Shown here: positions 3,936 through 57,170 of the stretch, one piece after another | Position numbering within the stretch: the first letter of the stretch is position 1 | How the letters are laid out: each line of letters begins with the position of its first letter | DNA from: Massalongia carnosa | Lineage: Eukaryota | Assembly (NCBI GenBank): GCA_965645245.1 | Contig: OZ287088.1 | Span: 310,001 to 374,000 of the forward strand | Reading direction: 5' to 3' | DNA length: 64,000 bases | Program-made: the position numbers and the translations under genes | Notes under the pieces: model-generated | Database searches by the model: none | Told to the model about the DNA's origin: nothing | The model's input: only the letters and a program-made list of their open reading frames with translations

Positions 3936-4378
3936 CTTGCCGAGTGTAGATGCAAATTGCTTTGTCAGCTGGTTTCGGTACTTGGCATCGGTTGCCGTTT
4001 TAACATGTCTCTCAATCTGGTCACAACGAAGATGAAGTTGATAAAGAGAATGATAATGACTCTAATGACAATAATAGCGACCTAGTGAAACGTAGCCACC
4101 TTGTGTTTATTGCTATTCTAGTGTTTGGGCAAAGTCCTGACCCTAGGGTGTGGCATGACACCGTTCGTGCGCCGTCCGCGCCGGGTACGGAGCCGCAACG
4201 GGTAGGCTACGGGGTCCATGGACGTTGTAGATGTGAACCCTGGGGTCAAGACATACTCCCAAAACCCCAAAACCGTGTTTCTCGCAGAGGAATCGTTTAG
4301 AGCGTGCGAAGTCTCGCGATGGTGTGGGTGCGGTGTGCATGTGGTGAGGGTTCGGGTAGGGTGCGGGACATGTGGTAT

Positions 4379-5340
4379 TCAGCCTCTTTGATGTCGTCTC
4401 GAGGCATTCCATATGATTGAGGGGTTTGTGTGTATGTATAATCGGTAGGCGTCTGATTTCCAGCGTCCTAGCAGCTTGATTTCATCCTCGTTTAGGCCGG
4501 CGTTTTTCGCGGAGGTGGCGGCCCCTCTCCGAAAGGAGTGACCTGAATAATTTCCCTGATACCCCTTGTCTTTTAGAACGTCTCGTAATGCTTTAGTGAC
4601 AAAGTTTCGCGTGAAAGCCTTTTTTGGATAGAACATAGGTTGGGTGAGATCTGTTGGAAAACGTTCGATCAGATTTCTCAATGATCGGATTGGGCAGGCT
4701 TCGTCGTTGACGGCCGCTACTGTAACTGTGACCCCTTATCGGAAGGGATCCGTCTTGGAGGCGGGAAGGGTCAGCTGTAATCTGCCCTCGCTCAGTAATA
4801 GTGAACCTCTGGTTATGTGCCATTGGGCAAAGTCGTCTCCCCACATGTTTTCTTCCCATGTGAATTCTCCGATACGTAAGAAGGCCGCGAAGGCTAAACA
4901 GAAGGCCGCGTGCAGTGTGGCTCCCCTTAAGGAATTTTGATCAAAAGTACTAACGATCTCTTCTAGGATGGATCGGGTTATAGGACGACGTTCTCGCGGC
5001 TGGGCGGCGGGACGGAGCCGGCGTATGGCTGCCACGATTCTCTCTAGTTGGGGATGATGGAAAATGTCTAATTCGGCCTTCGACGCGCCTCGGTCGACTT
5101 GATAAGATCTGATGCCGCTTAAGTATTGTTTTATGGTTTTTGGGTTAATTCCCTTGTCGCCTAAATGAGCTGCCCAGTCGCATAATGAGCGAATGGACGG
5201 AGGAAAGGGGACGTGATTCCATATCACGTAGTATTCGGTGTAGCTTCGTCGTGCCTGCTCGTACGATGTTCTAGTCCCTACAGCTAGGCCCCACCATAGA
5301 TATCTCGCTGCTGAGTTTGGCAGTTCTTGGTTTTGGAACC
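4379..5340 (-). pseudogene. Tyrosine recombinase of YR retrotransposon copy 1
   Basis: FLRIGEF (R), SKTD (K), HSFRRGAAT (HxxR), LGRWKSDAYRLY (W/Y). Premature stop at 4736; 5' boundary approximate. Confidence 0.9.
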
Positions 5341-5393
5341 AGTGTTCCGGTGGTTCACCGATTGTGCCCCGTGGGCTAATGTCAAGTCCTGTA

Positions 5394-7600
5394 CTAAAGG
5401 ATAGTTGTCAGCAATTTTGTTCCATGGACCGCGGGAAAGTATATCTGCCAGAGTATTAGTCTTGATGAGATCCAATATGATTCAATGACGATGTCATGTA
5501 ATGCTAGTAGCATGGCAATATCCCGTAGGGGTTTCATGGCCGGGCCGCGTATGGAGCCGTTGCGTAGTCCATTTACGACCGCTTGATTGTCGCCATATGA
5601 CAAGTTTGGATCCTTTAAAATAGGTAACCATTTGCGCAGTGCGTGTAATACAGCCATCATTTCTTTGACATTGATATGTTTCTTCATGTCTCTGGACGAG
5701 GTCATTATCGAGAATACTTCAGTGCGTGTAATACAGCCATCATTTCTTTGACATTGATATGTTTCTTCATGTCTCTGGACGAGGTCCTTATCGAGAATAC
5801 TTCGGCGGACGAGACTAGAGATTCCTTTGAATGTCCTTCGTCGATCGTTCCGACTATTTTGCTATGCGCCATGCGTGACGCGGCATGTTCCCGGACGAGG
5901 TCCGATGAACCTTTGATACCTCGAGCAGATGCAGCGAGAAATTCTTTGGAATTTTCTTCGTCTGTCAGCCCGGCCATCCGCATCGAAGACACCTCGGCAG
6001 ACACCTCCAGAAATTCGCTGTAATTTCCTTCTTCGGTTATCTCGGTTGTCCCGGACTTAAAGGTGCGCATTGCGATGTCCCCGGACGAGGTCCGTATGGC
6101 TGACGTCTCGGCAGGTGTGACTAGGAATTCGTTGAAATTCTCGTCGTCTATCACCCCGACTATCCCCTGAGACTACGAGACCCGGACATCTTGTATCCTT
6201 AACTCGTTGTCTGAAGACGTCTCGAAAGAGATTGAGTTCTTCTTCTTTGAAGGCATCCAATGCGAGGGTCTCGTGAGAACACCTCGTCTTGGGAGAGATA
6301 CCTCGGCAAACGCACGCTGTGTTTCGGTTGTCTCTAGTGTTTGTGTATTTGAATGACGAGAAAGCGTGCCCGCTTCGGTGGAGTGTGGGGTTCGGTGCAC
6401 CGAATAGTACCCGCCAATTCCCCATGTTCCCGAAGCGTCTGGCCCTAGACGAATTTCCTCTCTAGTGTTCAGCGATCGTAAGATTTGAACGCCGTTCCAT
6501 CGGGGCAAGAAGTATTGCCACCATAATAGATCTAGTCGCATGTCGCCGGCTATGCGGATCCGACCCGTGTCTTCGCCGAGGGCGGTAAATAGGCGGTGTA
6601 AAAAGGCTCTGCCTGGTTTGACCACTTTGGCCGCAAATGATAGAAAACCCCAGAAGGGAACTTAGTTCGTCTTTGGACATATAGTCTTGCGTCAATGCGC
6701 TGTTGACCCATTCGATGGCCTTTTTTAATTTGTCGGGAGGTAGGCGGGCTTCCATGCGTTGGGTGTCTAGTGTTAACCCGAGAAAATCGCAGATTTGCCC
6801 CGTCTCTCCCTTTGATGCGTTTATACGCATGCCCAACTCGTCGCACAACGTGTCGAACGCGGACTCGTAACGGGATGCCTCCTCGCTCGTCTTGACAATC
6901 GCGAGGAAGTCATCTAAGTAATGTAGGACTAGCCAGTTCTGAACGACTAATATCAAGTTTATTCCCTTCGCGAAGAGATCGAAGATAAATGGGGAGGCAC
7001 GAAGACCAAATGGGAGGAAGATGTCCATCCAATAAGAATTGTTCCACTGAAAACCCAGTAGCCACCAGTCCGCTCTTGCGACGGGTATGTGCCGGAAGGC
7101 GTCCGCGAGGTCGCGTTTCACGAGGTATGCTCCTTGTCCGACGTCAAGAAGAGCTTCTAGTGCTTCGTCAAATGACGTGTACTCTAGGGCGCCCCATTCA
7201 GCGGGAATGTGATAATTGACCGAGCCCTTGCGTGGATGAGACAGATGATGAATTCTTCGCCATTTGCCATTGGGGTTGGGGACGAGGCCCAGTGGGGAGG
7301 ACATAAAGTGAGGCGGTGGTTCCCGTACGGGTACTACACGGTGAAGTTGAATCTGTTCGTCCAGATCTTTGGACAACACCTCGGGTGCATCTTTGGCAGA
7401 AGATAGGTTCGGGCTTATGATACGCTGTTTTGGCCCTGTGTAGCCAATCCTTGCCCCACATCGCATGATGTTAAGAATTGTCCTTCTATAGACACTGTCT
7501 GGATGTTTCTCCAATCGTCGTTTCCATCCCGCTGACTTAAGTGGGCATCGTACCTCGTTCGCATCCGCGTCGGTGTCTATCCGATATGGAAAACCCTCGG
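5394..7600 (-). pseudogene. RT-RNase H of YR retrotransposon copy 1
   Basis: KWRRIHHLS, KRDLADAFRHIP, LPFGLRASP, HYLDDF, DASGTWG, HINVKE, GDNQAVV. Frameshifts and stops present; boundaries approximate. Confidence 0.9.
5637..5802. repeat. 83-bp tandem duplication disrupting RNase H of copy 1
   Basis: cagtgcgtgtaatacagcc...gagaatactt repeated at 5637 and 5720; single in copy 2. Confidence 0.9.
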
Positions 7601-7631
7601 AAATGAACGAGAGAGCGCTTGAGACGGATAG

Positions 7632-8776
7632 TCAACTGAGCTTGCTTTGCTGTGGAGGATATGGATTGACGCGCATGCGACAATCGCGTTGCGTATGCTG
7701 GCGTCCGCATGACGCGCAAACGTGACGAAATGTGCAGTTGCTTGGACAATCGCCGCCGTTATTGTATCGTCTGCACGCTGCTATGCCGCGTTGATCGTCT
7801 TGACTTGACGTGCGTTGAACGAGCGAATTCGTGCTCTGTGTTCGACGAAGATTGGGGCCAGCGTTGTAATCGATTTTTCGACGGAGATTTCGTTCTTCTA
7901 AACCTCTGTTCGGGGTCCGCCATTCGCGCGGGTCGTCCACGCCCTCCACGAGGCGGGCTTTATGAAAGCCGAAGTAGAATTGACGAATTGATTCGAACGT
8001 GTATAGAAGAGACCATCCTAGCAATTGATCGATGTAGACGTGCATTGCCGCTTGAAGTTGTTAGAATGTACAAATCAGGCTACTTCATTTCAGCCGCACT
8101 CACCTTCTACCGCACGAGTATGGCGCACGCTAATGGCTAGACGTATCGCTAGTCTAATACTAGCATACCGTACATTGTCTATAAATCTAGCTATTCCCAC
8201 TATATAGAACAATAGCAAGCGTTCTATCTATCTACTATACTACCTTTTGATAGAAGTTCCATTTGTGTGCCCGCGTGAGCGATGTGAATGACGATTTGAA
8301 AGTATACGAGAAACGCGCGAAGAAGATGTGTGATTCCTCGTGCGTCCGAGGCTAGGGCGTCCTCTTCCCGATATTCCACCCTCAGCATGAAATGTCGCGA
8401 ACGCGCTCGGTCTCGCTGGTAGTATTAAAGAATTTGTGGGTGGTGCGGATTCTGTGCGTGACAGCACCGCTTCGTCTCTGAGACGTTGTATCTCGCGTTC
8501 GAGCTCTGCCTCCTCTTGCTCGATTTCTCTGGCTTTTGCTTCGGCTCGTAGCCTTTCGGCTTCTGCCATAAGGGCCGCGTGACGGTCTGGAGGCGGGATT
8601 GCCTCGGGGGAGGAGTGGCGTTACTCATTTTCTATTGTGGCCTCTCTAGAGTCTGATTGAGGTGTGACTCGGCCTCCCCGGCCGCGTGTGCCTCTGCCTC
8701 GACCCCGACTGCCGGTCGCACCACGGGGAGGATTCGTCTGGCAATTCTCTCGCCCGCTTTGACTGCGTGTGTTCAT
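7632..8776 (-). pseudogene. Gag-like ORF1 of YR retrotransposon copy 1
   Basis: Matches 27881-28996 (coiled coil; CRRYNNGGDC..C..H..C..C..H..C finger). Has an internal deletion near 8378 and a solo-LTR insertion. Confidence 0.85.
8059..8252. mobile_element. Solo LTR (194 bp) inserted in YR gag
   Basis: TGTTAG...TTGATA with 5-bp TSD gaagt (8054-8058, 8253-8257). Absent from copy 2. Confidence 0.75.
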
Positions 8777-9068
8777 GATGTGAATAGAATATGAATAATA
8801 TGTTTGCGTGTGTGTGAGTGTGTGTGTGTAGAAACAGCGAAACACGATTTTTGATGAGTGTTGATGAGGAAAGAGAGAAGAGATGGCGGGATGGAGGAGG
8901 TGAAGAGTTTTTCACCTCCCTGCTAGCGTCCGGCCCTATCCCGCCACGCCCTTGAAAAAAAAACTGGCAACGTGTAAGCGAGCTTACCCCACTAAATTTT
9001 ACCCCTTTTTATCAACATTTCACCTTTACATTGCGATAACCAGTCAATTGAAAGCTATTTACATCAAA

Positions 9069-10175
9069 TTAATGACCAGTCATGGCCCCCTCAGCTGAGA
9101 TGACGTCCTTTAGCCGTTGAGGCATTGATCGTACTCTCTAATTAATAAACTCCTGACTGACTGTCGCCCAGCCCTCACAAATCAATGCTTTTAAGCTCGC
9201 TTCGTCCCAATGAGGATACTTTTTAATATGCTGCTTTGTGGGCTGCCAGCAGTTTTCTATAGGAGCCTAATCAGGTGAAGAAGAGCAGTTGAAATAATGT
9301 TCTAAACGATGATCCTACTTCCATTTCTTGACTGCGTTTCTCGTCCTGCCTGTGCCATGCCCGGAATCACCATCTTCTTCGATCACAAAATCATCCCCTC
9401 GCTCTAGCCACGGCTTGACAACGGGCTCAAGTATTGAGTTAATGTATACTTGATGCGTCATCTTGCCATTGCTGTTGCCCGGCACTTCGTAGAATATAAT
9501 ATCCGACTTGAAGTTGTAGCCTACAGCCGCCCAACAATGCAGTCTCTTTCGATCTTTCTCCGCTGGCGCATCACGATGTTGTATACAATCCCATCTATAG
9601 CGTGTGCCTGGCTGACGTATGATGCGTAATTTGCCCTCGGGCCCGTAGGAGAAATGAACATCGTCACTAAATCGTACTCGATACCAATCTTCTGGTTTAG
9701 GATATTTGGCCAGCATTATATGAGCGTATTCCACCCGTTTTTGCATAGGAGGGTCGGCCAGCCATCCTTTGACGCAGGCTAGACATTTCTCGTAATTCAA
9801 TGCAGCACGTAGCACATTATGCATTGTACGACCCACAACATCTGCTCCAACTTCCATCGCAACTTGTTCCCATGTCAAGCGTTTTCCTTCGAGTTGTAGC
9901 TCATCTTCCTGAAGCAGCCGATCAGCCTCTCTTACTTGCTCGCCTGTGATTTTTGATCGTCTTCCTCGCGTTTCTATAAGCTCTGTATGATGACGAGTAC
10001 GTGTCGAAGCTCCTTTGCGAATAATTCTGTAGCCAGCTCGTTCCGAAACGCCATACTTCTTGAAAAGATTTCGTGGATCATGTACGATGCCTTCATCAAG
10101 AAGATATTCATGAATTCCTTGAAGTTTAGCTCGAATGGGAGTATCGTAGTGAGTTGCACGTTGCTTACGAGGCAT
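9069..10175 (-). pseudogene. Tc1-like DDE transposase (DD38E), with in-frame stops
   Basis: MPRKQ start; WYRVRFSD, HCWAAVG, EEDGDSGH, SPD*APIENCW. Stops near 9315 and 9267. Confidence 0.88.
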
Positions 10176-10353
10176 GTTGGTGTGGATGGTTGATGAAAAT
10201 GGGGGGATTTTAAGGGTTCGGATACGGGGACACCGGGTAGGATGCATGTACACCGGCACGCGGGTGACAATAAATTGCAACGTGTAAGCGAATTTATCCC
10301 TGAATGCCCCATCAAAACACCTTCCTTTTTTTCAACTTTTTATCTCATCATCA

Positions 10354-11792
10354 ATGTCTCGACCCAAAAAGCCTCATTATGATACTCCCACAAAGGCCAA
10401 AGTTCAAGGAGCTTGTTGGGAATGCCAAGCCAGCTAGATCATATCTGACGTAATATGCGAATGCTCTCGCGTATTTTACTGATATGGGAATGGTTACATC
10501 TGAGAATTTCTGGTATCTTCGATGCTTAGAAATTCAGGTCTATAGACGTTCGAGGAGAATCTCGAATGTTCTATGATCATGTGTATATAACATCACTCCT
10601 ACGCATAGCTTAGAGATCAGTTGCAATAATCTGAATTATTCCATTCATAGAAGTTCTGTACTATCCAGAGACTTCTGGCACTCTGCCACCTATTTTCTGT
10701 GCATTGGGTCCATCGTTCTCCATCCATCCCTCCTATTTTAAACAGAGCTTATCAATTTCTCATCTCACATGCAATTCCATTCGATCCACGGGCCATTTTT
10801 CAGGAATTTGGCGTGGCCGAGCGCGCGGGCTATAACATCATCAAAAGCGGAGCTTCTTCTCGCACACGTCACAATTCTTCTCTCGTTGAGACTCGGGGTC
10901 GAAAGCGAAAGATTAGTGATGATCAGCTGAAGGAGGCAGATCACATTCTGCAGGATCAAGATCTACAATTGGAAGGAAAACGCTACACATGGGATGCTTT
11001 AGCACAGGAGATTGGGGCCGACGTGATGGGACGTACAATGAAGAGAACTCTTACAGCTGCCTTGAATTATCACAAATGTCTAGCCTGTGTCAAAGGGTGG
11101 CTGGCAATGGCATCAGAAGAAAGAAGAGAAGAATTTGCTACAGTTATGTTAAATAAATATCCTCGGTCCGAAGACTGGCATCGCGTACGATTCAGCGATG
11201 AGATTCATTTTGGCTACGGGCCTGAAGGACAGTTACGAATCATTCGTAAGCCCGGAACAAGATATCGTTGGGATTGTATTCAGCATCGTGATGCACCACC
11301 TGAGAAAGATCGTAAAAGAAAGCACTGCTGGGCAGCAGTTGGTTACAATTTCAAGTCGGATATCTACTTCTACGATGTGCCCAGCAATAGCAATGGAAAA
11401 TGACTCATCAGGTGTATATTGACGCTATTCTTGATCCCGTCGTCAAGCCCTGGTTGGAGCGTGGAGATGACTTCGTACTTGAAGAAGATGGAGACTCTGG
11501 TCATGGCACGGGCAAGACACGAAACGCGGTCAAAAAGTGGAAGTTAGATCACGATTTAGAGCACTATTTCAATTGTGCTTCATCTCCTGATCTAGCCTCC
11601 ATTGAAAATTGCTGGCAGCCCGCAAAGCAGCATGTTCGTAAATTTCCTCATTGGGACGATGCAAGTTTGGAGCAGCTGATTAGGGAGGGATGGGCTCGAG
11701 TCAGTCAGGAATTTATCAATGAAAGGGTGTTATCCATGCCCAAAAGATTGAAAGAGGTAAAAGATGCAAAGGGGGCGATGACTGGTTATTGA
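10354..11792 (+). pseudogene. Tc1-like DDE transposase (DD38E), split by a solo LTR and a frameshift near 11400
   Basis: MSRPKKPHYDTPTKAKVQGA|YQFL..., RFSDEIHF, EEDGDSGH, SPDLASIENCW. Paralogous to 9069-10175. Confidence 0.88.
10414..10744. mobile_element. Solo LTR (331 bp)
   Basis: TGTT...AACA with 5-bp TSD gagct (10409-10413, 10745-10749). Removing it restores the transposase frame. Confidence 0.85.
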
Positions 11793-12117
11793 TCTCATGT
11801 AATTTAGATGAATTTTATCAGCTATGCAGATGATGGTTGATGATGAGATGAAAATTTGAATAAAAAAGGGGGGGTAAATTCGCTTACACGTTGCAATTTA
11901 TTTTGTCACCCGCGTGACCGGGTAGGATGCATGTACACCGGGCACTTGATACATATACACCCTCTTCCCAAAAAGGTAAAGGGCCGGCACATTTCGCACC
12001 ACTTTACCTTTCTTGGTTAGCAGATGAAAAATCAGATGGTGATTTGAAAACTATGCGGCAATGAAGTTTTCAGCATTGATCTGTTGCATCTCATCAAGAT
12101 TGATAAGATGACATCTT

Positions 12118-14246
12118 CTAGCTACTCGGTCGCAATTGCCTCGTCAGTCCTACCCCTTCTTCCCCTGCCCCCCCTGCCCCCCCTGCCCGCCTCGCCGACC
12201 TTTTTCGCCTTGTCCGCCTTGTCCGCCCTGTCCGCCCTGTCCGCCCTGCCCGCCCTAGTTGCTGCTTGAGTCGCAGGCCTGGATGAGGCACGAGTGCCTG
12301 CCACCTAACCTTCATCTCGTCGTCGCTCGCGCCCGCGCCCGCGCCCGCGTCCCGCTGGTGTAGCCTCAGCTCTTGCCAGAACTCGTTCGATATCCGCTGG
12401 CAGTTCATTCCCATGTTGCTCTGCTATTTCACCTTCAACGATTTCGAATTGAGATGGATTCCGATAGGTGGAGTTGTCCAATGCTTGTCTACGATTCTCC
12501 GCCCCTGCAGGACGTCCTCGAGGTTGGACAACTGCTGGTTCTTCCACCTGAAGTAGCGGATCGAGAGCTGGATCATTGATTGGATCAGGTAAGGAAGATC
12601 TTTCAAACCTCCAATGAGGATGGACATCTTCCAAAATCAGACATCCCTCAGGTCCGAATAAACGTTCCTGCATTTTGTGACTGCATGGTAATCCGGTAGT
12701 AGTTGTAAAGCTTCCAGTGCAACGATTGACTGCCGTTGCTTGGTCCGTCAACAGTCTGTATTGATCATCCATTCTTCTCAATGCGTATGGGGTTACGAAC
12801 GCCGCGATGCGATTGAAAACTGGTTTTCGAAGATCCATAGGGTATCGCATCTTCGCTTCGTCAAAGGCTATCATGTAATTTTGTCGCTCGTTGATTAGAA
12901 GTAGGTTGATGCCATCTACAACTGTTTTCAAATCTCCTACAGCTCAGTCAGTATTGAATGTTTCTTAGGGTTATACTCATTACCTGTTGATACTCCGAGA
13001 TGACGTTTAAGAGCTGCGTGCCCCCCCTCACCTCTAGAAGTAGTTGTGGTTCCGAAATGTAACACCTGATCGGTTTGAAATTTCACGAAGCGACGATGAA
13101 AGGACATGATGTACGTTTCTCGCAGATAATCCAAACATTCTCTATGCGTTAGATAGTAGGTGTCATTCATTCCCTGCCACGCCGACTCGTAATCAACTCT
13201 GGAAGCGGCGTATACAACAGAAGTCCAGGCGGATATGAAGTCATCCCATTCTTCTTTGGTATTGAAGTCTTTCTTGCAATTTGCCGTCACATTCTTGTTG
13301 ATATGCCAAAGACAGAGCAGATGATTCGTATTGGGAAAGATCAATCGCACGGCATTCATCAACCCACGTTCCATGTCAGTCACAACAACCACCGGATCTG
13401 GAAGTTGCAACTGCGCATACAACGACTTCAATTGTCCCAATGTCCACTCATAATCCACCTGCTTCTCTTTTGCCATGAAGCAAAACGCGACATAGAAATT
13501 AGTATGTAGGGCCGTTTGCCCGCTGATGATCAGCAACGGAAGTTTATATCTGTTGGTTTTGTAGGTGCAATCCATGACCAGAAATTCATGATTGACCTTC
13601 AGTAGAGTTTGAGATGTTCCTCTCACGAAGAATAAGTGGGTGATCTGATTGCGAATGTCTTTCTGATAGTTGTACGTCCAGTCGTTTTGATCAAGTTCCT
13701 GCATCAATGCCTGAACCGGGGTTAAAGGACCTAGAGTATCTCGTCTCAGCTGTGCCTTGATGTTGTAGATATCTCGAGCTTGAATAACGCATTGTTGTCA
13801 TCGGCGTCAATACGAAGGGTGGAGAGAATCTTAGAAGGAGCTGTTTGCACGGTCAATTGTCTAGAGATGTCGTTCTTAATCTCTTCAGTCATAGCCATTT
13901 TGCGTAACTTTGGATGCGATCCAGCAATTGTAGCTTCATGATTATGGAATGGGTTGATTACTTCCAATAACCAGGTTCCATCCACTCTGTTTCGCACCGC
14001 CGTGACCTTGAACTGACAATCGATGATTCGAGTATTGGTATGACGTCTATCTCTGCCTCGAGGTATTCGATTGCTACCTCCCCTGTCGCAGCGCAACCAG
14101 ACTTTCCTCTTGATGCCAAGATCTGATTTCTTTGATCTAGCTGTGACCACCGCGTATCCTTCTGAGCCGGCGTGAGTATTGACGCTGAGAATGAGTTCTT
14201 CCAAGGTGGAAAAAACCTGGTCATCATTAGGAGGAGCCAGAGGCAT
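12118..14246 (-). pseudogene. MULE transposase (FAR1-like DNA-binding domain, MULE DDE, SWIM-like C-terminus)
   Basis: CDRGG..CQFKV..HNH, MDCTYKTNRYKLPL, VVTDMERGL, LCLWHINKN, TTSRGEGGH, CTG..GLPCSH. Likely intron ~12937-12983, frameshift ~13775, RG-rich tail. Confidence 0.9.
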
Positions 14247-14682
14247 GATTTGAGAATGATTGAGAAAGATGATGCATCAATTGAAAATTTCAAGATCTCA
14301 TCTGATTTTTCATCTGCTAACCAAGAAAGGTAAAGTGGTGCGAAATGTGCCGGCCCTTTACCTTTTTCGAAAGAGGGTGTATATGTATCAAGTGCTCGGT
14401 GTACATGCATCAAGTGCCTGGTGTACATGCATCCTACCCGGTGTCCCCGTATCCGAACCCGATTTTAATGGGGTAAAGTCGCCTACACGTTGCCAGTTTT
14501 TTTTTCAGGGGCGTGCTAGGGCAGCCGTAGATTGACCTGTTCAATGAACCTCCACGTCTCATGTTTAATGAAATATAAATTCACTTTGTAGGTATAGTAG
14601 CATGATTGTCATTGAAGGTAATTATCTATGTGGGCTATTTGTCTGCTTTATATAGCAGTCACAAAACAGTTACATCTAGGAG

Positions 14683-14765
14683 CCCTGACGGTCAGACCTT
14701 GTCCCCTGACGGTCAGACCTTGTCCCCTGACGGTCAGACCTTGTCCCCTGACGGTCAGACCTTGT
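14683..14765. repeat. 21-bp minisatellite, about 4 copies
   Basis: ccctgacggtcagaccttgtc repeated head-to-tail with no spacers. Confidence 0.95.
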
Positions 14766-14991
14766 TTCCCATATCTGCTTTTTTTTAGGCACTTTGCAAG
14801 GCACCTCCCGAACTGCCTGTTAGGCACCTCCTATAGATGCCTGGCAGGCACCCGTGGGACTCACGATGGATGCCTATATTAGTGGTTGTCTGACCATCTA
14901 ACCGATGGTAGCCTTACCATTTAACAATGTTCACACCATGACAGGTGGCGGGTCGGGTTCGACTAGTCAAAACCCGACCCAACCCGACTCG

Positions 14992-26338: not shown

Positions 26339-26599
26339 ATACAAGTCTAACTTTTTATAGTTAGACTTTGCTTACTAAGTTCGCTGTGCCAAGGGCAAAC
26401 CTCAATAATACAGGCAGGTTTGCCTTATAAATGAGAAAATGTTAGAATACCAAGCCGCCTTAACTTACCCGATAAGCGTAAAATATCAACTCGATTGTGT
26501 TATACCATCCCATCGTTTTCTATGTGTGTTAACTATGTACGGCAAAGCTAGGATCGAGCGGCAATCATCCGTCATGACAGGGTTGGATCTGGGTCGCGG

Positions 26600-27500
26600 A
26601 GGCCCTTCGAGCGGAGCTCAATGCACTGGTTGCAACGGCCGCATTTGGGGTTTTACACCCACCGTCGGAGACTGACGAGCTGGGCACCTTAAATAGCTTC
26701 AAGGGTGCCGCATCGGTCATCATGAGTAAGGCGCCACGATGGCTAGATCCTATTCAGCGCGTCTGTTGTGATGCCCACCGAGACGAGTCCACTCATCCTC
26801 AGCGCGCTATTCCGGTCGGGCGGCAGTTAATTATATTGTCCCTCTTTTGTCACATGTTGCGCCCGAATACGTCAACAAATTTTCAGAGCGTCATGGGCCT
26901 TTATATCTATCAGGGTGGCGCCAGGCGCAGAGTTCTGGATACTTTATGTGAACTTGGCTTGACAATGTCGTATTCCACTCTTCAACGGCGCATGTCAAGC
27001 TTAAGTGACGAAGCGAGGCGAAAAATAAGGACGATACGGCGAGCTTCAACTACTGTTGTAACCTATGATAATTTTGTTTTTGCAGAAGGCCGAAGAGGCG
27101 AGAGAATCGGTGACGTAAGAGAGTTTCGATCAATTACGACCGCTTTGATATTTGAAGGAGAGGGCCTTGGGGTAACGGTCTTGAGACAGAATATGTGGCA
27201 ACCTGAGAATTATCCTTTGTCCGCCATAGGGCTCGCACTAAGATTGAATCCAGATGACATAGACGCACAGGTAAGCATCGACCACTTTTCCAAGCGGCTT
27301 ACTTGAAACTGATGAAATGTGGACGAAGATTCAAATTCATCATGTTGAGTCGGCAATTCAAGCCCTTTAAAATGCTAAATTCAGCGACTTCAAGTTTCCT
27401 CGGGTTACATCCATGCCTGTGTTGAAAAGACTGAATCGCCTTCGAACGAAGTATCATCCGTTGAAGCCGGCTATGAAAGTCGAAAGCACCACTGTTGAAG
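26600..27500 (+). pseudogene. AcademH-like transposase fragment
   Basis: FQSVMGLYIYQGGARRRVLDTL..LTMSY, VTYDNF; intron donor gtaagc at 27271 in the same position as in the intact copy. Confidence 0.82.
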
Positions 27501-27880
27501 ATCAAGCATTTCAGCTTGTGATTTCAACAAAGTACTGACTTGAATGTAAATCTCTGGTCGATCAAGAGGTGTTTTGATAAGTCGAGTTTCATCATGAAAC
27601 CCACATTGACTTCTGACGCAGTTAAAGGTCTCTTCATTCAACGTTGCAGAAACTCTCAAATAATGCACCAGCTTGCTGGGGGCTAGTGAAGTTGTCACCG
27701 TGAGGGACGGCACCAGGCGTGTAAGCGGGATAGGGCCGGACGCTAGCAGGTGAAAAACTCTTCACCTCCTCCCATCTCTTCTCTCTTTCCTCATCAACAC
27801 TCATCAAAATCGTGTTTCGCTGTTTCTACACACACACACTCACACACACGCAAACATATTATTCATATTTTATTCACATC

Positions 27881-28996
27881 ATGAACATACGCAGTCAAAG
27901 CGGGCGAGAGAATCGTCAGACGATTCCTCCCTGTGGTGCGACCGGCAGTCGGGGTCGAGGCAGAGGCACACGCGGCTGGGGAGGCCGAGTCACACCTCAA
28001 TCAGACTCTAGAGACGCCACAATACAAAATGAGTCACGCCACTCCTCCCCCGAGGCAATCCCGCCTCCAGACCGTCGCGCGGCCCTCAGGGCGGAAGCCG
28101 AAAGGCTACGAGCCGAAGCAAAAGCCAGAGAAATCGAGCAAGAGGAGGCAGAGCTCGAACGCGAGATACAACGTCTCAGAGACGAAGCGGTGCCGTCACG
28201 CACAGAATCCGCACCACCCACAAATTCTTTAATACTACCAGCGAGCACGAGCGCATTCGCAACATTTCATGCGGAGGGTGCGTCTCCTATGTTTCATTCT
28301 CTGATAGCTTGATTTCCAATGGTAGACACGGAGCACTTCAAAAACATCCGCGACAACAAATTCAAAGTGGAGAATATTATGAAGCTGTCGACCGAATACG
28401 AGTCGGTTCAGCCCAAAAACAAATATCTAAGAATTGGGTCGACCGAGGTGGAATATCGGGAAGAGGACGCCCTGGCCTCGGACGCACGAGGAATCACACA
28501 TCTTCTCTGCGCGTTTCTCATATACTGTCAAACCGTCATTCACATCGCTCACGCGGGCACACAAAGGGAACTACAAGCGGCAATGCACGTCTACATCGAT
28601 CAATTGCTAGGATGGTCTCTTCTATACACGTTCGAATCAATTCGTCAATTCCACTTCGGCTTTCATAAAGCCCGCCTCGTGGAGGGCGTGGACGACCCGC
28701 GCGGTTGGCGGACCCCGAACAGAGGTTTAGAGAAACGAAATCTCCGTCGAAAAATCGACTACAACGCTGGCCCCAGTCTTCGTCGAACACAGAGCACGAA
28801 TTCGCTCGTTCAACGCACGTCAAGTCAAGACGATCAACGCGGCATAGCAGCGTGCAGACGATACAACAACGGCGGCGATTGTCCAAGCAACTGCACATTT
28901 CGTCACGTTTGCGCGTCATGCGGACGCCAGCATACGCAACGCGATTGTCGCATGCGCGTCAATCCATATCCTCCACAGCAAAGCAAGCTCAGTTGA
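27881..28996 (+). pseudogene. Gag-like ORF1 (one in-frame TGA at 28310)
   Basis: ORFs 27812-28312 and 28319-28996 are in the same frame; RG-rich N-terminus, coiled coil, Cys/His zinc finger. Confidence 0.85.
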
Positions 28997-28999
28997 CTA

Positions 29000-31263
29000 T
29001 CCGTCTCAAGCGCTCTCTCGTTCATTTCCGAGGGTTTTCCATATCGGATAGACACCGACGCGGATGCGAACGAGGTACGATGCCCACTTAAGTCAGCGGG
29101 ATGGAAACGACGATTGGAGAAACATCCAGACAGTGTCTATAGAAGGACAATTCTTAACATCATTCGATGTGGGGCAAGGATTGGCTACACAGGGCCAAAA
29201 CAGCGTATCATAAGCCCGAACCTATCTTCTGCCAAAGATGCACCCGAGGTGTTGTCCAAAGATCTGGACGAACAGATTCAACTTCACCGTGTAGTACCCG
29301 TACGGGAACCACCGCCTCACTTTATGTCCTCCCCACTGGGCCTCGTCCCCAACCCCAATGGCAAATGGCGAAGAATTCATCATCTGTCTCATCCACGCAA
29401 GGGCTCGGTCAATTATCACATTCCCGCTGAATGGGGCGCCCTAGAGTACACGTCATTTGACGAAGCACTAGAAGCTCTTCTTGACGTCGGACGAGGAGCA
29501 TACCTCGTGAAACGCGACCTCGCGGACGCCTTCCGGCACATACCCGTCGCAAGAGCGGACTGGTAGCTACTGGGTTTTCAGTGGAACAATTCTTATTGGA
29601 TGGACATCTTCCTCCCATCTTCCTCCCATTTGGTCTTCGTACCTCCACATTTATCTTCGATCTCTTCGCGAAGGGAATAAACTGGATATTAGTCGTTCAG
29701 AACTGGCTAGTCCTACATTACTTAGATGACTTCCTCGCGATTGTCAAGACGAGCGAGGAGGCATCCCGTTACGAGTCCGCGTTCGACACGTTTTGCGATG
29801 AGTTGGGCATGCGTATAAACGCATCAAAGGGAGAGACGGGGCAAATCTGCGATTTTCTCGGGTTAACACTAGACACCCAATGCATGGAAGCCCGCCTACC
29901 TCCCGACAAATTAAAAAAGGCCATCGAATGGGTCAACAGCGCATTGACGCAAGACTATATGTCCAAAGACGAACTACGTTCCCTTCTGGGGTTTCTATCA
30001 TTTGCGGCCAAAGTGGTCAAACCAGGCAGAGCCTTTTTACGCCGCCTATTTACCGCCCTCGGCGAAGACACGGGTCGGATCCGCATAGCCGGCGACATGC
30101 GACTAGATCTATTATGGTGGCAATACTTCTTGCCCCGATGGAACGGCGTTCAAATCTTACGATCGCTGAACACTAGAGAGGAAATTCGTCTAGGGACAGA
30201 CGCTTCGGGAACATGGGGAATGGGCGGGTACTATTCGGTGCACCGAACCCCACACTTCACCGAAGCGGGCACGCTTTCTCGTCATTCAAATACACAAACA
30301 CTAGAGACAACCGAAACACAGCGTGCGTTTGCCGAGGTATCTCTCCCAAGACGAGGTGTTCTCACGAGACCCTCGCATTGGATGCCTTCAAAGAAGAAGA
30401 ACTCAATCTCTTTCGAGACGTCTTCAGACAACGAGTTAAGGATACAAGATGTCCGGGTCTCGCAGTCTCAGGGGATAGTCGGGGTGATAGACGACGAGAA
30501 TTTCAACGAATTCCTAGTCACACTTGCCGAGACGTCAGCCATACGGACCTCGTCTGGGGACATCGCAATGCGCACCTTTAAGTCCGGGACAACCGAGATA
30601 ACCGAAGAAGGAAATTACAGCGAATTTCTGGAGGTGTCTGCCGAGGTGTCTTCGATGCGGATGGCCGGGATGACAGACGAAGAAAATTCCAAAGAATTTC
30701 TCGCTGCATCTGCTCGAGGTATCAAAGGTTCATCGGACCTCGTCCGGGAACATGCCGCGTCACGCATGGCGCATAGCAAAATAGTCGGAACGATCGACGA
30801 AGGACATTCAAAGGAATCTCTAGTCTCGTCCGCCGAAGTATTCTCGATAAGGACCTCGTCCAGAGACATGAAGAAACATATCAATATCAAAGAAATGATG
30901 GCTGTATTACACGCACTGCGCAAATGGTTACCTATTTTTAAAGGATCCAAACTCGACAATCAAGCGGTCGTAAATGGACTACGGAACGGCTCCATGCGCG
31001 GCCCGGCCATGAAACCCCTACGGGGTATTGCCATGCTACTAGCATTACATGACATCGTCATTGAATCACGTTGGATCTCCTCAAGAGAGAATACTCTGGC
31101 AGATATGCTTTCCCGCGGTCAATGGAACAAAATTACTGACACCTATCCTTTACTACTGGACTTGACATTAGCCCACTGGGCACAATCGGTGAACCACCGG
31201 AACACTGGTTCCAAAACCAAGAACTGCCAAACTCAGCAGCGAGATATCTATGGTGGGCCCTAG
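29000..31263 (+). pseudogene. RT-RNase H with a large repetitive insertion
   Basis: HYLDDF, TDASGTWG...(~190 aa insert)...HINIKE, DNQAVV, ENTLADMLSRG. Stop at 29564 and a frameshift near 29600; 5' boundary approximate. Confidence 0.9.
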
Positions 31264-32167
31264 CTGTAGGGACTAGAACATCGTACGAGCAGGCACGACG
31301 AAGCTACACCGAATACTGCGTGATATCGAATTACGTCCCCTTTCTTCCGTCCATTCGCTCATTATGCGACTGGGCAGCTCATTTAGGCGACAAGGGAATT
31401 AACCCAAAAACCATAAAACAATACTTAAGCGGCATCAGATCTTATCAAGTCGACCGAGGCGCGCCGAAGGCCGAATTAGACATTTTCCATCATCCCCAAC
31501 TAGAGAGAATCGTGGCAGCCATACGCCGGCTCCGTCCGCCGCCCAGCCGCGAGAACGTCGTCCTATAACCCGATCCATCCTAAAAGAGATCGTTAGTACT
31601 TTTGATCAAAATTCCTTAAGGGGAGCCACACTGCACGCGGCCTTCTGTTTAGCCTTCGCGGCCTTCTTACGTATCGGAGAATTCACAAAGGAAGAAAACA
31701 TGTGGGGAGACGACTTTGCCCAATGGCACATAACCAGAGGTTCACTATTACTGAGCGAGGACAGATTACAGCTGACCCTTCCCGCCTCCAAGACGGATCC
31801 CTTCCGACAAGGGGTCACAGTTACAGTAGCGGCCGTCAACGACGAAGCCTGCCCAGTCCAATCATTGAGAAATCCGATCGAACGTTTTCGAACAGATCTC
31901 ACCCGACCTCTGTTCTATCCAAAAAAGGCTTTCACACGAAACTTTGTCACTAAAGCATTACGAGACGTTCTAAAAGACAAGGGATATCAGGGAAATTATT
32001 CAGGTCACTCCTTTCGGAGAGGGGCCGCCACCTCCGCGAAAAACGCCGGCCTAAACGAAGATGAAATCAAACTGCTAGGACGCTGGAAATCAGACGCCTA
32101 CCGATTATACATACACACAAACCCCTCAATCATATGGAATGCCTCGAGACGACATCAAAGAGGCTGA
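31190..32167 (+). pseudogene. Tyrosine recombinase (frameshift near 31540)
   Basis: FLRIGEF, SKTDPFRQG, HSFRRGAAT, GRWKSDAYRLY. Confidence 0.9.
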
Positions 32168-34110
32168 ATACCACATGTCCCGCACCTCACCCGAACCCTC
32201 ACCACATGCACACCGCACCCGCACCATCGCGAGACTTCGCACGCTCTAAACGATTCCTCTGCGAGAAACACGGTTTTGGGGTTTTGGGAGTATGTCTTGA
32301 CCCCAGGGTTCGCATCTACAGCGTCCATGGACCCCGTATCCTACCCGTTGCGGCTCCGTACCCGGCGCGGACGGCGCACGAACGGTGTCATGCCACACCC
32401 TAGGGTCAGGACTTTGCCCAAACACTAGAATAGTAATAAACACAAGGTGGCTGCGTTTCACTAGGGGTATTCCATCTGGCAAACGGGTTCGAAGCACCCC
32501 AAGATTGAAGTATTCAGGTCGAAAATCACGCCATTCCGATACCAGATGCAGCCCGTCGATAGCCAACAGACAAATATTTGAGAAATAAGATGAATGACTG
32601 AGAACCATTTCGTTAAACAATTTCGACGTTGCTATTTCTGGACTCGTGAATACTGTAAGTAACAATTAGAGCGCTGACTTTTATACAAACAGATTTATTC
32701 GACTTATCATGAGTGTAACGACTATGACGAATAGCAGTCAAGGTAGACGAGTTGTTATTATCTCCGTTCAACACTATGGGTCGATAGGTGTCGATGAGAG
32801 TAAGTTTTTCACATTGCTCTTCTTCCAGTGCAATCAAAGGCATAATTATCAACATTGACTTGCAAGGCGAAAACATCAACGGAGCAGCTTGAAATAGTAT
32901 GCTTTTTCCGAAGCCTGTTTTTGCTATCAAAATCAAATCCATCTTATCGCACAACAGATGATGAAGAGCATCCACTGCGCCCTCTTTAGACGAAACCCGA
33001 AATAACGATCAACAACGCTCTCGATCTTCTCAAGAGTCAACGCCTGTATCACGTCGTTCATATTAATGTAATAGCGCTACAATCTTGATCGACTTTCGAA
33101 CTGTCAAAAAGCACGCTAGCAAGGACGACGACTAGATTTTCGAGTTCGGAGCCCTGAAGGACTACAATAACTTGATCCGTCAAGGCAATATGATGGATAT
33201 AAGCGCCGACCGTTGATTTGAAGAGCAAGACTCAGTTTGATATTGTGGTGCTGTTGTCGGGATTTGAGAAACATTTTGAGTCGATGTTGCTCGACGAGGA
33301 AGATATTCGCGCAACGCATGCATGACATTTAAATTTTAGGACATTCAATAAAGCATATCTGGAAGTAGCGGCAACAATGAAGTATTATGTAACAATTATC
33401 ATGTGTTATCGTTGATCCTGTGAAAAATGATGATTTTTTATCTTAAGCACGAAATTTACATGTGTTGTCACCAAAATAACGCGAACCTGGCAAAATTACA
33501 GAGTTTTGAACTCAGACCTGCCGCCGAAGCATGCGTAGTAAGCTAAACAGAGTCTTAACCCAAAACAATTAAACTACTCACTAAACTAGCTTAGCTTTAG
33601 ACTAATAATATACTAATCTGAATAGATTTAGCTGTGGCGAGGGCAAAGCAGGTCTGAGGTAATGAGGCAAGCGTACTAATCGTGCTTGACCACTTTGAGA
33701 GCACCCCTCAGTGCCTACCGGCTCAAAGACGCTACCGGCTCAAAGACGCATTTTCAACATTTTACACCTCAACGTCGACCCGTCAACAATCAACAACATA
33801 ATGGTCAATTCATATTCAGCTATCGAGGATCGAATTGACAGTGCAATTGACGCGTTACACGATGGTTTGTATACTAACTTTCGAGCTGCAGCCATAGCTT
33901 TTGACGTTGCCCCTCGTACGGTTCAAAAACGATGGAATGGAGGCAACTCCAAAAGCAGTCGACCTAGTACTAACAAAGCTCTGACGGATGACCAATAATA
34001 AGCTGTTCGTGACTACATCGAGCGATTGGACAAGGCCAACATGTGTGCGCGACCCAAATTGATCGTGGGCTGCAAATTATCTGATTCGTTTTGGGAATCG
34101 TACTTTTGGT

Positions 34111-52728: not shown

Positions 52729-54936
52729 ATGCAGATATAACGCGAATAGTCATGTTCCAAAGCCAAACTGCATGACTGATGCATGAGACAGGTACTATGG
52801 TATCCATGGATTATACCCACTTCACCGGTACACTATGGTATCCTTAGTGACTTCATCCAATCATAAGAGCTATATTAAGTCTCTAAGCCGCATCCGATAT
52901 AGTATGTGCAGATCTTTCATGCACTGTACTACATAATAACTGAATCGCCACGCCTTGTCGCCGGACAAGATCAAGCGGCGCAGTAGGATAGGTTGTGCAT
53001 TTACAAACAATTTGCGTGCCATTTGCCTGTTTCTTCTTCTTCCCCTAACGTTCCCCATTATCTCCCATGGAACTGAAAAGCATATAAGCCTGGATGAATT
53101 TCCGCTGTGATGCTCGAACAGGTTTGTTCACGACTTCTCCGTTAGACGTCCAAAGGTATATTTGTTTCCCCCAATTTGCTCCCTTTTCTCTAGTCTTGGC
53201 CTCCGTCACTTAGTCTTCGACTCATCCATCGTGTTAACGTCGCAAAGGCCTAATGGCTTACCAAGAACAAGAAGCTCAAAACTCTCAAGGGTAGGGCCAC
53301 CTTGAAACCCCTTATTTTTTGAATTGGTCCCTCAAACTCGGCCTCCTTTGCTGACGTCTTCTTCTTGTAGCCGTGAGGACGCCCACATTGTCCAAGACGG
53401 GCAAGCACTCCGTGAGATGGCTCGCACTTCTGGTATAGGTGCCTCTGCATCTACAGAGTCAACCAACGAAGCCATTTCTCAGCAAGCTCGTCGAGAACAC
53501 AATCTCGAACCGGGACAAATAATCCTGCTGTCGGCTTCGAGTAATATCTCTATTCAAGCCCAGCCTCCCTCCTGCCCGTTCCATGGCCCAATTCTTGCAA
53601 TGGCTCATATCCATGGCTGTCAAGGAGAAGGATTAGGTCCCATGGAGCGATATCTTGCCGAAGGCCCATCCCAGCAACATGCAGTCTTCATTCGAGCAGA
53701 TACTGGAAGATTTTCGACATCACGTGGATGCACCTGTCGTTTCGTGTTGGAAGCCGACTTGGATCATCATGCCCAAGAAGAACGAAGACATGGCACAGGG
53801 CCGAGGAACATATGACGCTGAGTAGCAGCTATCATTTGAGACAAAATTTTCTTCTTTTGGCCTTAGAAAATCTCTTCTCCTCCTACCCAGCTTGGCCAAG
53901 CTGTTTGGCTAGACGCCGTTGTTCCAATTCCTTTAACGAGTATCGATTGCGTTATTGGTTTGGTCGTTCATTATGTGCCACCTGGCTGGCTACTTTCATA
54001 ATCTTGCCTCCTGTCATTACCTTAGGATATGAAAAGAGATACTTTGAAACAAATACTAAAAGCAATAACAAAGTACAGAGGAAAGGCCGAGTCGTAAATA
54101 CTCATGACTTGATGGAAACCTAGCAACACAAAGGCATTGAAAAGCAAACACGTCCATACCCACGACACTACCCGCCCATGTTGTCTTAATATGTCATTTC
54201 ATCACGCTTCGGGCTGTAATGGGTACATACATGCGTTGTCCAATCTTGATCAGACGATGTAGTATGATGCTTTATTCGATTACTTCATATGACTAAGCTA
54301 TTAGGTACGCGGATTCTTTAGTTTGCCTCAGTACCTCAGACGTGCGTGGCTCTATGAGCCGGCTAAGCCCCTCCGGGTTAGCCTATTTTCGCTAAGCCCC
54401 TTCGGGTTAGCGTCGCTAATTCCCTTCGGGTTAGCGGCCCTTTAGCTGACTACGCATGCTACGGGCGGCACGTCTGAGCGCAAAACTCTGTATTTTTGTC
54501 AGATCCGGCTTATTTTGGTGCGCGCTCATACAAATTTTTGGCTTAACCTCAAAAATCATCAAGAATCAAGTTGACGGCGGAATCAACAACGCGCAACGAC
54601 ATTTCATAAATTATGTAATAATAGAAATGATGCTTTGATATACATTCTATCGATTAATCAATATTTTAATTACATATCGATGCAAAATTGAGTCGCAATA
54701 TCGATCTCGCGACGAGGACTCGACTTTGACTCGAAATTTCGACACCACCACAGCAGACTCAACGGGTCACTAGCTCCAGTTTTTCATTGTCGGCGCTTCT
54801 GATCATTAATCTGATCCTCCGAGCGTTGTTTTCGAAAGCCTAAAATCGTTGAATGTGATGAACTTGCTTGATGTGCGTTTTGCGGGCTAAGAATCCAACT
54901 CGCGAATCGTCGAATATCGCTCGCGAACACATCGAA

Positions 54937-57111
54937 ATGGACGATCCTATAGCGTCGATAACTCGCGAGCAGGTGACGACCGTGATTTTAAGTAAATTCG
55001 GCTTTTATCCAAAGAATGAGCAAGTTGACGCTATCATGACTTTAGCACAAGATCAAAAGGATCTGATATTTATCGCCAAGACTGGATTTGGAAAGAGTAT
55101 TATCTTTCAAGCTATGCCATTAATGTTCTCTTGTCTTAAGATCGCTTTAATTATCATGCCTCTCAAGACCTTAGAAGCTCAACAGTGCAAGAAATTGAGC
55201 GTTATCGAGGGATGCAAGCCTTTCGTGTTGGACGGTGATAGTAATAATTCTTCTAATTTAAAGTTAATTCGTGAAAACAATTATACGCATGGTGTGTATT
55301 CAAATTATGATTGAGATAAATATAAAAACTTACTCGTTAATATGAATAGTTTTTACTAGCCCAGAGATAGCGACGTCAAAGCTGTTTAATCAGGAGGTTC
55401 TGAGGCATCCAAGTTTCTTCTTGAATTTATGTCTTTTAGCTCTTGATGAGATGCATCTTGTATCCGAATGGCGAGATTTCCGGCCCGAATACTTCAATCT
55501 CGGTGTGCTTCGTACACGATTACCAGATGGTATTCCTTTTCTGGGTGCGTCTGCAACGCTGGATCCAAGAACCCTAGAGAGCGTTAAAGATCGCTGTGGC
55601 TTTGATAACGAAAGTACTGTTATTCAAACAGCGCTTGATCGTCCAGAGATATACATACAGACAAGCAGTCTACAGCGGCCTATGAACAGCATGATCGATC
55701 TTCAACATCTTTTACCAACACGGGCTGAGAGTCCTTTTGATATTCCGAAAACGATTATCTTCATGGATTCAATTTCATCTATCAAAAAGGCGTGTGCGCT
55801 AATGAAAGTATGGATGAATCAATTGTCCTATCCAATTGAGGCTGCTAGTTGGGTCGCGCCTTTCTTTTCCGACATGGCCACCCAAGACAAAGAAAGGATT
55901 GCGGCTCGCTTCGAAATGCCCTCGAATCAATGTAAATTTCCTCGAATCCTGATCGCAACGGATGCATACGGGCTTGGTATTGATAATCCAGACGTTATGA
56001 GAGTTACGCAATGGCTGCTACCCTCGTCAATGGCGAAGCTATACCAACGTTTAGGTCGTGCTTTGCGTTGCGGTCGAGGACAGGCGCATTTTACTCTTTT
56101 GCATCCTTCTTGGTGTATGGGTCCAAGAAGCGGATCAAAAATGGACGAACAGGACGGATATGACGCGGGAATCGAGATTGAATCCAAGGCCAGTAAACGC
56201 CGCATCAATCAAAAGGATGCTGATCGGCGACGAGATATGCCACCGGGTCTTTGGGAGATAATCAATGTGCCTTCAGATGGTTGCGTTCGAGGTATTGGCT
56301 TGAATTTCTTCAATGATAAAGTGTATCCAACGTCGGCCTATGTTAAGCCGCAACCTTGCTGTTCAATTTGCGATCCAAGTTTTCAGACATCAACAGCCGC
56401 AATGAGATGTTAAATAGAACGGCCGAGCGTGACTCGTCTAGGCGGCCTTGGTTCACCCTTAAACTTCGAGAATGGAGGGAGGCCAAGGCGCAGGAAAAGT
56501 TCCCAAATTCACATATGCGATACTTCCCATCATTGATAATGCCCGATGAGGTACTGAATTCTTTGACCACTTGGGCGGATCAGATTGTGGACGAGCCCAC
56601 CATGCGGCGATGGATTGGTAACACATGGACTGGTATTAGGCCCTACGGCGCCGAGCTTTTAGAAATTTTAAAGCGGGGTCAAGCAATGAGATTAGACGAG
56701 GGAGACATGTTCGAGGAATGGAAACGACACAACGACATAAAGAGAAAACGATTACCCAGCCTAACATGCAACTCCGCCAGTATTGAATTTGAGGAACGGA
56801 GGAAAAACTGGATGATCAAACAAGGATATATGTCGAGAAAGGTTTTTAAAAAGCGAAATGCGGTCAAGAAGAAAGTCTCGAAGGAAAGCGAGAGCACGGA
56901 GCCATCGGGCGAGAATCCTGCGCCTAATCACAATATCTCCGATGCGGCGCTCGTTGTTGACAATGTTGATGCTCTTAAATCATCGATGAAGGCATCAAAG
57001 ACCAAAAAAGCGCCTCGAGATCCTATGGAAGCGTTGTCGCTGAATGTACCCATGGCCCTTCCTCCGACACGATCTAGACAAGAAAGAAAGTGCCCCGTCC
57101 GCTACCTCTGA
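54937..57111 (+). pseudogene. SF2 RecQ-like helicase (intron 55292-55349; one frameshift near 56375)
   Basis: AKTGFGKS, IMPLKTL, VFTSPE, LDEMH..EW..FRPEY, GASAT, DRPEI, IATDAYGLGID, YQRLGRALR, C..CCSIC Zn site, helical C-terminus in the overlapping ORF 56356-57111. Confidence 0.88.
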
Positions 57112-57170
57112 CTCTGTAAAGCCGCGCGGCGCGGATTTACATGACTAGGCTATCTCGTGGTATCGATGAT

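Follow-up and report, generated by a model that had tools for sequence, protein, structure and literature searches.

We have analysed a tyrosine recombinase (YR) retrotransposon that occurs in two copies in a 64,000-nt stretch of DNA from Massalongia carnosa (GenBank assembly GCA_965645245.1, contig OZ287088.1, positions 310,001 to 374,000 of the forward strand), hereafter the window, whose numbering is used throughout and which lies in a transposon-rich part of a fungal genome. With a probability of about 70%, the locus occupied by copy 2 is a decayed, unit-length copy of a Ngaro-type YR retrotransposon, a derived dead end. A canonical Ngaro element reads A1-[ORFs]-B1A2B2, with split direct repeats (SDRs) around the open reading frames (ORFs), whereas the unit-length form, A-[ORFs]-B, would amount to a single circle length and lacks the additional A2-B2 tail from which the SDRs of a complete Ngaro are made. 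A preliminary description of this DNA had proposed a YR retroelement with none of the repeats used by known YR elements to rebuild their ends, bounded by CTAG-containing sequences, integrating at CTAG and regenerating its termini in an undescribed way. The latter process need not be invoked, as a related family with the same kind of termini possesses both canonical SDRs and unit-length copies.

The succession of gag, reverse transcriptase (RT), RNase H and YR that had been read from the + strand was recovered. RT gave a Pfam RVT_1 match (E 6.9e-9) and the YR ORF a weak Phage_integrase match (E 6.7e-5, under Pfam's cut-off); RNase H was recognised through alignment with 22 homologues and gag is named by position only, its ORF having no meaningful match in Pfam, where only a sub-threshold and irrelevant FA_desaturase hit was returned (E 0.0023). 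Among the six ORFs of the element, Pfam detected no methyltransferase (Dam/MT) family at E<=0.01 and no rve match indicative of a DDE integrase, and, with RNase H ending at ∼31120 and the YR ORF starting at 31140, there is no space for a methyltransferase between them. A protein search with the RT-RNase H ORF identified 117 relatives at E<=1e-5, most of which are 45–59% identical across the RT part. Over 214 aa, the YR ORF shares 47% identity (E 5e-58) with the final ORF of L006, a locus that carries SDRs and in which RT and RNase H occur in the same order as in the window element. Judged by sequence, the content and order of the element are therefore Ngaro-like, namely gag, RT-RNase H and YR with no methyltransferase, a placement based on similarity to relative loci that carry SDRs.

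Two further features of the coding region were observed. gag and pol share one frame which is split by a single TGA in both copies (28994-28996 in copy 2 and 7632-7634 in copy 1), a codon that could reflect either readthrough or decay; pol of the relatives begins with its own Met (MPSSL...). In addition, RNase H contains an insert of ∼200 aa in both window copies (at ∼5640-6300 in copy 1) which is present in 0/22 aligned homologues, lies past the region of the first catalytic Asp, ahead of the next helix, and maintains an open reading frame in copy 2.

As had been noted previously, the ends of copy 2 are not connected by repeats. [quoted passage not shown] The A1-[ORFs]-B1A2B2 arrangement was found in neither window copy. 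The SDRs by which Ngaro elements are defined are lacking from the copy but not demonstrably from the lineage, given the homologous termini and mixed forms of a related family, F1. An RT-alignment scan of metagenome contigs identified 78 related loci, of which 14 constitute F1, whose members share 83–96% nucleotide identity with one another and are ∼45% (RT) and 47% (YR) identical to the window element, with homologous termini at both ends (Table 1). L006, a member of F1, has the canonical Ngaro layout, with 97.7% identity between A1 and A2. Ten F1 loci hold a B end, and the count of forms is limited to these; what comes after the first B is A in six (L005, L006, L011, L016, L017 and L046) and unrelated flank in four (L007, L008, L015 and L043), three of which (L007, L015 and L043) also possess their own 5' flanks. 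SDRs are present in L006, L011 and L016. Unit-length A-[ORFs]-B is a regular state of F1, a bona fide SDR family, and the F1 unit-length copies are more diverged among themselves (88–89% identity) than are the F1 SDR copies (95–96%). Ngaro-like copies, and one family reference or consensus, without SDRs have been published (PMC9210276; this and the other articles cited here are drawn on for part of their content).

An automated screen detected the SDR pattern in 22/78 related loci, one of which (L063) is dubious. A2 and B2 were never adjacent in these 22 loci, being separated by a spacer of 51–105 nt (16 and 220 nt in two odd cases) whose length is constant per family. The closest relative in RT, L004 (57% identity), has its 3' end cut by the contig end, and L001, in which no SDR was found, is unit-length as judged by candidate ends, with only a candidate 3' end. 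The entire L005 metagenome contig (1-9039) consists of two head-to-tail F1 units with a period of 4547 bp, 99.96% identical and joined at a B/A junction, and could represent a tandem array or a circle, or could result from the assembler having passed through the SDR cycle twice. L009 and L010 (41% RT identity) carry 208-bp inverted repeats (6221-6424 and 9066-9261) around RT, together with a second inverted pair upstream and no SDRs, and may possess a different terminal architecture. Low-depth contigs of three runs join the first 86–147 nt of the window element to its last 40–177 nt (27809 to 32288, 27748 to 32287 and 27809 to 32425). These A-to-B contigs may represent either solo AB units or derivatives that are non-autonomous, and are similar to AB repeats that have been reported in isolation from Cafeteria (PMC8547959). 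Another family has only the 3' module from 32287 onward in common with the element, detected as a loose end in runs X1, X3 and X5.

The 3' end at 32464 was confirmed, as copy 1 ends identically at 4082 (...TTTCACTAG), three contigs of run X3 diverge from the window past 32464 and F1 terminates in ...TCCACTAG. The 5' end, in contrast, had been placed at 27683, immediately at a CTAG, and this position did not hold. In empty-site contigs, 27660 is connected either to 32465 through AA (runs X1 and X6, the shorter side of the X6 joint being 192 nt) or to 32466 through AAA (runs X1 and X5). Run X6 also yielded a 7136-nt contig with another copy of the element, whose alignment begins at 27665 after unrelated flanking sequence, and homology to the 5' end of F1 covers the first 30 nt counted from 27663. 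Combined, these results indicate that the 20 nt left of 27683, which are missing from the empty site and which the preliminary description had allowed might be part of the element, do belong to it and that the CTAG is internal. By homology with F1, the start of the element is placed at 27663 (ATGCACC...), within 2 nt.

The empty site reads ...CTCAAAAA/GGGTATT, with the slash marking the insertion point, and contains no CTAG, contrary to the proposed integration at this motif. Its translation restores the frame of the host gene, a RecQ-like helicase (...DGIP/FLRVSAT...), in agreement with the paralogue at 55346 (...DGIPFLGASATL). Comparison of the empty and occupied sites indicated a clean insertion with no target-site duplication, and F1 flanks are likewise without duplication. 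A 4-bp CTAG target duplication was considered, as the host frame would stay open, yet it is contradicted by the empty-site contigs. Neither the F1 nor the window flanks contain a short core common to both sides, as proposed for DIRS elements. The 5' flanks of copy 2, the X6 copy, L004, L006 and L048 end in A-rich sequence (CAAATA, CTAAA, CCAAATA, TGAAAC and GTAAAAC), which may reflect a weak target preference, few flanks being represented. Inspection of the 5' end by eye identified no convincing tRNA-type primer-binding site.

The CTAGs at 27683 and 32461 lie in 8-mers which are perfect inverted copies of each other and which, from comparison of families, appear to form the outer arms of a two-tier hairpin that spans the B/A junction and is conserved. 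In each of the natural B1/A2 junctions folded (11 loci), the last 6–9 nt of B pair with a segment 20–36 nt inside A, enclosing an inner stem-loop. The junction created in silico from the 3' and 5' ends of the window element folds likewise into a two-tier hairpin, with the arms ∼20 nt apart as in natural F1 junctions. The earlier suggestion that the joined ends form an att-like dyad was thus correct in that a circle-type junction is relevant and the 8-mers belong together, but they are not arranged around a single 4-bp core. Within SDR elements the junction sequence is the element end plus the element start, and the left arm of the hairpin stops at the element boundary.

Folding energy alone is unremarkable for the window and F1 junctions (z -0.45 to -1.09, compared with -0.98 to -4.90 in other families; internal control windows had a mean of -5.3 kcal/mol), and the case for the predicted hairpin derives from covariation. 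The outer arms change in concert between lineages, F1 carrying a compensating change relative to the window element (Table 1). For 14 of the 22 SDR loci the boundary could be calculated exactly, and 13 of these have a perfect 7-nt arm whose end is no more than ∼3 nt away from it, the remaining locus, L027, having one mismatch; the corresponding frequency at random sites was 3.1% (2048/66000). By eye, no outer stem was seen in L042. RNAalifold predicted both helices from 12 junctions, with compensatory change in at least one sequence at 9/16 pairs. Pair counting in the same 12 junctions yielded 89.6% paired cells vs 74.5% in shuffles (0/500 as high) and a covariation score of 0.455 vs 0.181 (0/500), while partners slid by 1–3 columns paired in <=49% of cells, values to be read in light of the fact that the sequences are related, the right arm is in part out of alignment in the two F1 rows and the structure was predicted from the alignment on which it was scored. 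One inner pair is U.G in 10/12 sequences, suggesting that the hairpin probably folds in the + strand. Titles and abstract openings yielded no description of a junction hairpin in Ngaro; the primary Ngaro papers lay outside this search, and a prior report is therefore possible. For DIRS elements, the idea that a short circle-junction sequence determines integration has already been published, and a 3' hairpin has been suggested as the primer of DIRS-1, whose actual primer is described there as still unknown (PMC7192593).

Table 1. Positions and properties of the retrotransposon, its termini and surrounding features. Positions refer to the window except for L006, which is numbered by its own contig.
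Feature	Position	Strand	Properties
YR retrotransposon copy 2	27663..32464	+	∼4802 bp; 5' boundary ± ∼2 nt; unit-length A-[ORFs]-B; inside RecQ-like helicase gene, without target-site duplication
5' terminal module	27663..27690	+	inner stem ∼27668-27679; right outer arm CTAGTGAA at 27683-27690; homologous module in F1 and L004/L001
gag-like ORF	27881..28996	+	Cys/His-rich stretch near end; in-frame stop 28310-28312; terminal TGA common to copy 1
pol	28997..31263	+	N-terminal domain, RT (Pfam match ∼29620-29871), RNase H (∼30196-31120); frame broken by 11-bp duplication at 29605
In-frame repetitive insert inside RNase H	30235..30840	+	∼200 aa; alignment columns 465-653; internal repeats D1 and D3
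Tyrosine recombinase ORF	31140..32167	+	frame broken by 1-nt deletion at 31535
3' terminal 8 nt	32457..32464	+	TTCACTAG; predicted left outer arm of junction hairpin, last bases of element
YR retrotransposon copy 1	4082..8950	-	97.7% identical to copy 2 over 4573 aligned nt (BLAST, MAFFT); first ∼53 nt missing
Mutator-like DNA transposon	8945..14515	-	FAR1 and MULE domains; ∼52-bp terminal inverted repeats; nested Tc1-like foldback; separate from retroelement
RecQ-like helicase gene, upstream half	32465..33008	-	downstream half continues leftward from 27662; from translations and paralogue comparison
L006, canonical Ngaro layout	A1 4705-5143; B1 9082-9262; A2 9263-9701; B2 9791-9971		spacer 89 nt
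Termini, window element			5' end ATGCACCAGCTTGCTGGGGGCTAGTGAA; 3' end TTCACTAG; homologous to F1 termini
Termini, F1			5' end ATGGTCCAGCTTGACTGAGGGCTAGTGGA; 3' end TCCACTAG; homologous to window termini
Outer arms, window			inside A CTAGTGAA; B end TTCACTAG
Outer arms, F1			inside A CTAGTGGA; B end TCCACTAG
Outer arms, other family			inside A TTAATCC; B end GGATTAA
Outer arms, other family			inside A TTAATAA; B end TTATTAA
Outer arms, other family			inside A TTAATTAC; B end GTAATTAA
Outer arms, other family			inside A TTAATGA; B end TCATTAA
Outer arms, other family			inside A TTAATTCCCC; B end GGGGAATTAA
Outer arms, L001			inside A TTAGTGC; B end GCACTAA; 3' end only a candidate

If the locus is a unit-length Ngaro copy, the element would have entered as circular or end-joined DNA recombined by the YR at the B/A junction. 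Its unit-length state would have arisen either from recombination between B1 and B2 after insertion, in the manner in which solo LTRs arise, or from integration of a one-unit circle. A unit-length copy would be unable to restore its ends from the shortened transcript and would thus constitute a dead end. The junction hairpin may act in priming, in joining the ends by keeping those of the cDNA together, or as a recombination site. That it folds in the + strand and is itself the cis element for one of these steps, such that unit-length copies retaining both halves could still be mobilised without SDRs, is advanced tentatively and appears rather unlikely.

Several observations weigh against a derived dead end. 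No copy of the window's own family with a B-A-B tail was seen, and its SDR-complete close relatives are presumed. None of the 13 joints listed from four runs containing the family (0/13) runs from 32464 back to ∼27663, though the same runs yielded short empty-site contigs; such contigs attest presence but do not prove absence. The window copies are only 2.3% apart, approximately the divergence between A1 and A2 of L006, and loss of SDRs by age alone is consequently not obvious. Finally, the view of the family is built on no more than two complete copies and a small number of contig ends.

The low divergence and the lack of a B-to-A joint count in favour of a rival explanation, in which elements of this fungal lineage are natively unit-length and able to transpose in that state; a whole-unit transcript would be converted to cDNA with the SDRs being dispensable, and the 8-mers and inner stem would splint the cDNA ends, the role of the ICR in DIRS-1, or form the recombinase site. 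Both window copies and, by its candidate ends, the related L001 are indeed unit-length, the termini retain both halves of the conserved hairpin and retrotransposition of DIRS-1 requires an internal sequence complementary to its termini (PMC7192593). However, the hairpin is equally conserved in families that bear SDRs, where it therefore does not substitute for them, and the unit-length copies of F1 coexist with SDR copies and are older. In addition, both window copies are broken and the A-to-B contigs resemble the solo AB remnants expected of SDR elements (PMC8547959). A native unit-length form is accordingly considered unlikely.

The two remaining explanations concern the 8-mers themselves. 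They could function as recombinase binding sites on duplex DNA, an att-like dyad, with no folded hairpin being involved. A tyrosine recombinase is expected to cut beside a binding arm, and wherever the boundary can be placed in a family it indeed directly adjoins the 3' side of the left arm; the arm spacing, however, ranges from 20 to 36 nt, the spacer contains a covarying inner stem and the U.G pair in 10/12 sequences can form on the + strand only, such that this explanation is distinctly unlikely. The original model, a repeat-less YR element bounded by CTAGTGAA...TTCACTAG whose circle would contain a dyad around one CTAG core and integrate at CTAG, accounts for the presence of CTAG at both positions within perfect inverted copies and for the host frame, which is open across the site if CTAG is counted once. 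It is scarcely tenable given that the empty site lacks both CTAG and the 20 nt left of 27683, that another copy and nine independent F1 5' flanks set the start 20 nt upstream of the CTAG and that the arms are 20–36 nt apart in natural junctions. To rescue it, the empty-site contigs would have to be paralogues with a coincidental 24-nt deletion.

Comparison with known systems places the element closest to the Ngaro-like elements of fungi, zebrafish, Xenopus and Cafeteria, with which it shares the gag, RT/RNase H, YR order, the lack of a methyltransferase, insertion without target-site duplication, 45–47% identity in RT and YR to canonical A1-[ORFs]-B1A2B2 elements and homologous termini. It differs from them in the lack of A2-B2 in the window copies, the ∼200-aa repeat insert in RNase H and the in-frame TGA between gag and pol. 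In DIRS-54_XT, a Ngaro-like family of Xenopus tropicalis, the reference also lacks SDRs while some genomic copies have them, SDRs having been lost wholly or partly; this family belongs to an animal and has an additional ORF for an SGNH hydrolase, and the comparison is by published description only (PMC9210276). DIRS-1 and DIRS1-like elements are likewise YR retroelements that integrate without duplication, and DIRS-1 possesses an internal complement to its termini, the ICR, to which the 8-nt arm and inner stem of the window element would correspond. The latter has, however, neither long ITRs nor an ICR of the 88-nt type, its terminal complement being only 8 nt; unlike DIRS1-like and PAT-like elements it has no methyltransferase domain, and its ORF order also differs from the DIRS1-like one. 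Cryptons resemble it in encoding a eukaryotic YR, believed to carry out recombination between a circle and a target of weak similarity, but lack RT, RNase H and gag. They are reported to have short flanking direct repeats, none of which are seen at the window element (PMC13465315).

Both window copies are pseudogenes. They differ by 68 transitions and 38 transversions in the MAFFT comparison, and copy 1 contains several indels including an 83–84-bp tandem duplication in the region of the RNase H insert. The lesions of copy 2 were judged against copy 1 and contigs of other sequencing runs. The 11-bp duplication at 29605, which shifts the RT frame, is found neither in copy 1 nor in contigs of X1, X3 and X6; the YR frame is shifted by the 1-nt deletion at 31535, behind which a C is inserted in copy 1 and in contigs of 4/4 runs; and the gag stop at 28310 is altered by a T>C difference in contigs of 4/4 runs.

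The 5' end of copy 1 is cut off and replaced by a Mutator-like transposon, whose terminal inverted repeats are located at 8945-8996 and 14515-14464 and for which Pfam identified MULE (1.3e-25), FAR1 and DDE_3. The CTAG at 14516, which had been taken as the other end of copy 1, adjoins the outer terminal inverted repeat of this transposon. The DNA beyond it, 14516-14900, was evaluated as the 5' continuation of copy 1 and rejected, local alignment with 27400-27730 scoring 17 against a shuffle mean of 18.0. The outer flank of the transposon bears no relation to the retroelement, and the Mutator-like insertion was therefore accompanied by a deletion or rearrangement. The FAR1 and MULE ORFs lie at 12308-14464 on the minus strand, and the nested Tc1-like foldback consists of ∼1-kb inverted arms (8935-9929 and 10933-11926) with 72% identity. 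No target-site duplication was seen by eye around 8945-14515, and the sequence GGCGTG beside the transposon end is common to both retroelement copies.

Elsewhere in the window, Pfam analysis of 24 long ORFs identified a HET-domain gene, Gypsy- and Copia-type polyproteins, DDE transposases, the MULE and RecQ-like helicase paralogues, of which that at 55346-56410 has DEAD and Helicase_C domains. The interrupted helicase region (26578-33547) has an inverted paralogous region ∼25 kb away, at 54441-59194, with patches of 75–84% nucleotide identity, which adjoins a DUF6589 ORF (57174-58691, minus strand). A repeated unit of greater extent may include the RecQ-like helicase gene itself.

Had the original claim held, the element would have represented a novel class of YR retroelements that rebuilds its ends in a novel manner; the evidence instead points to an ordinary element of the known Ngaro kind, in copies from which the A2-B2 tail was lost or in which it never existed. 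Since unit-length copies are regular in Ngaro families, as seen in 4/10 of the F1 loci, missing SDRs in a single copy say little. The start of reverse transcription and the joining of the ends in YR retroelements are described as still open (PMC7192593), and the junction hairpin, if not already present in the primary Ngaro papers, would provide a concrete cis element.

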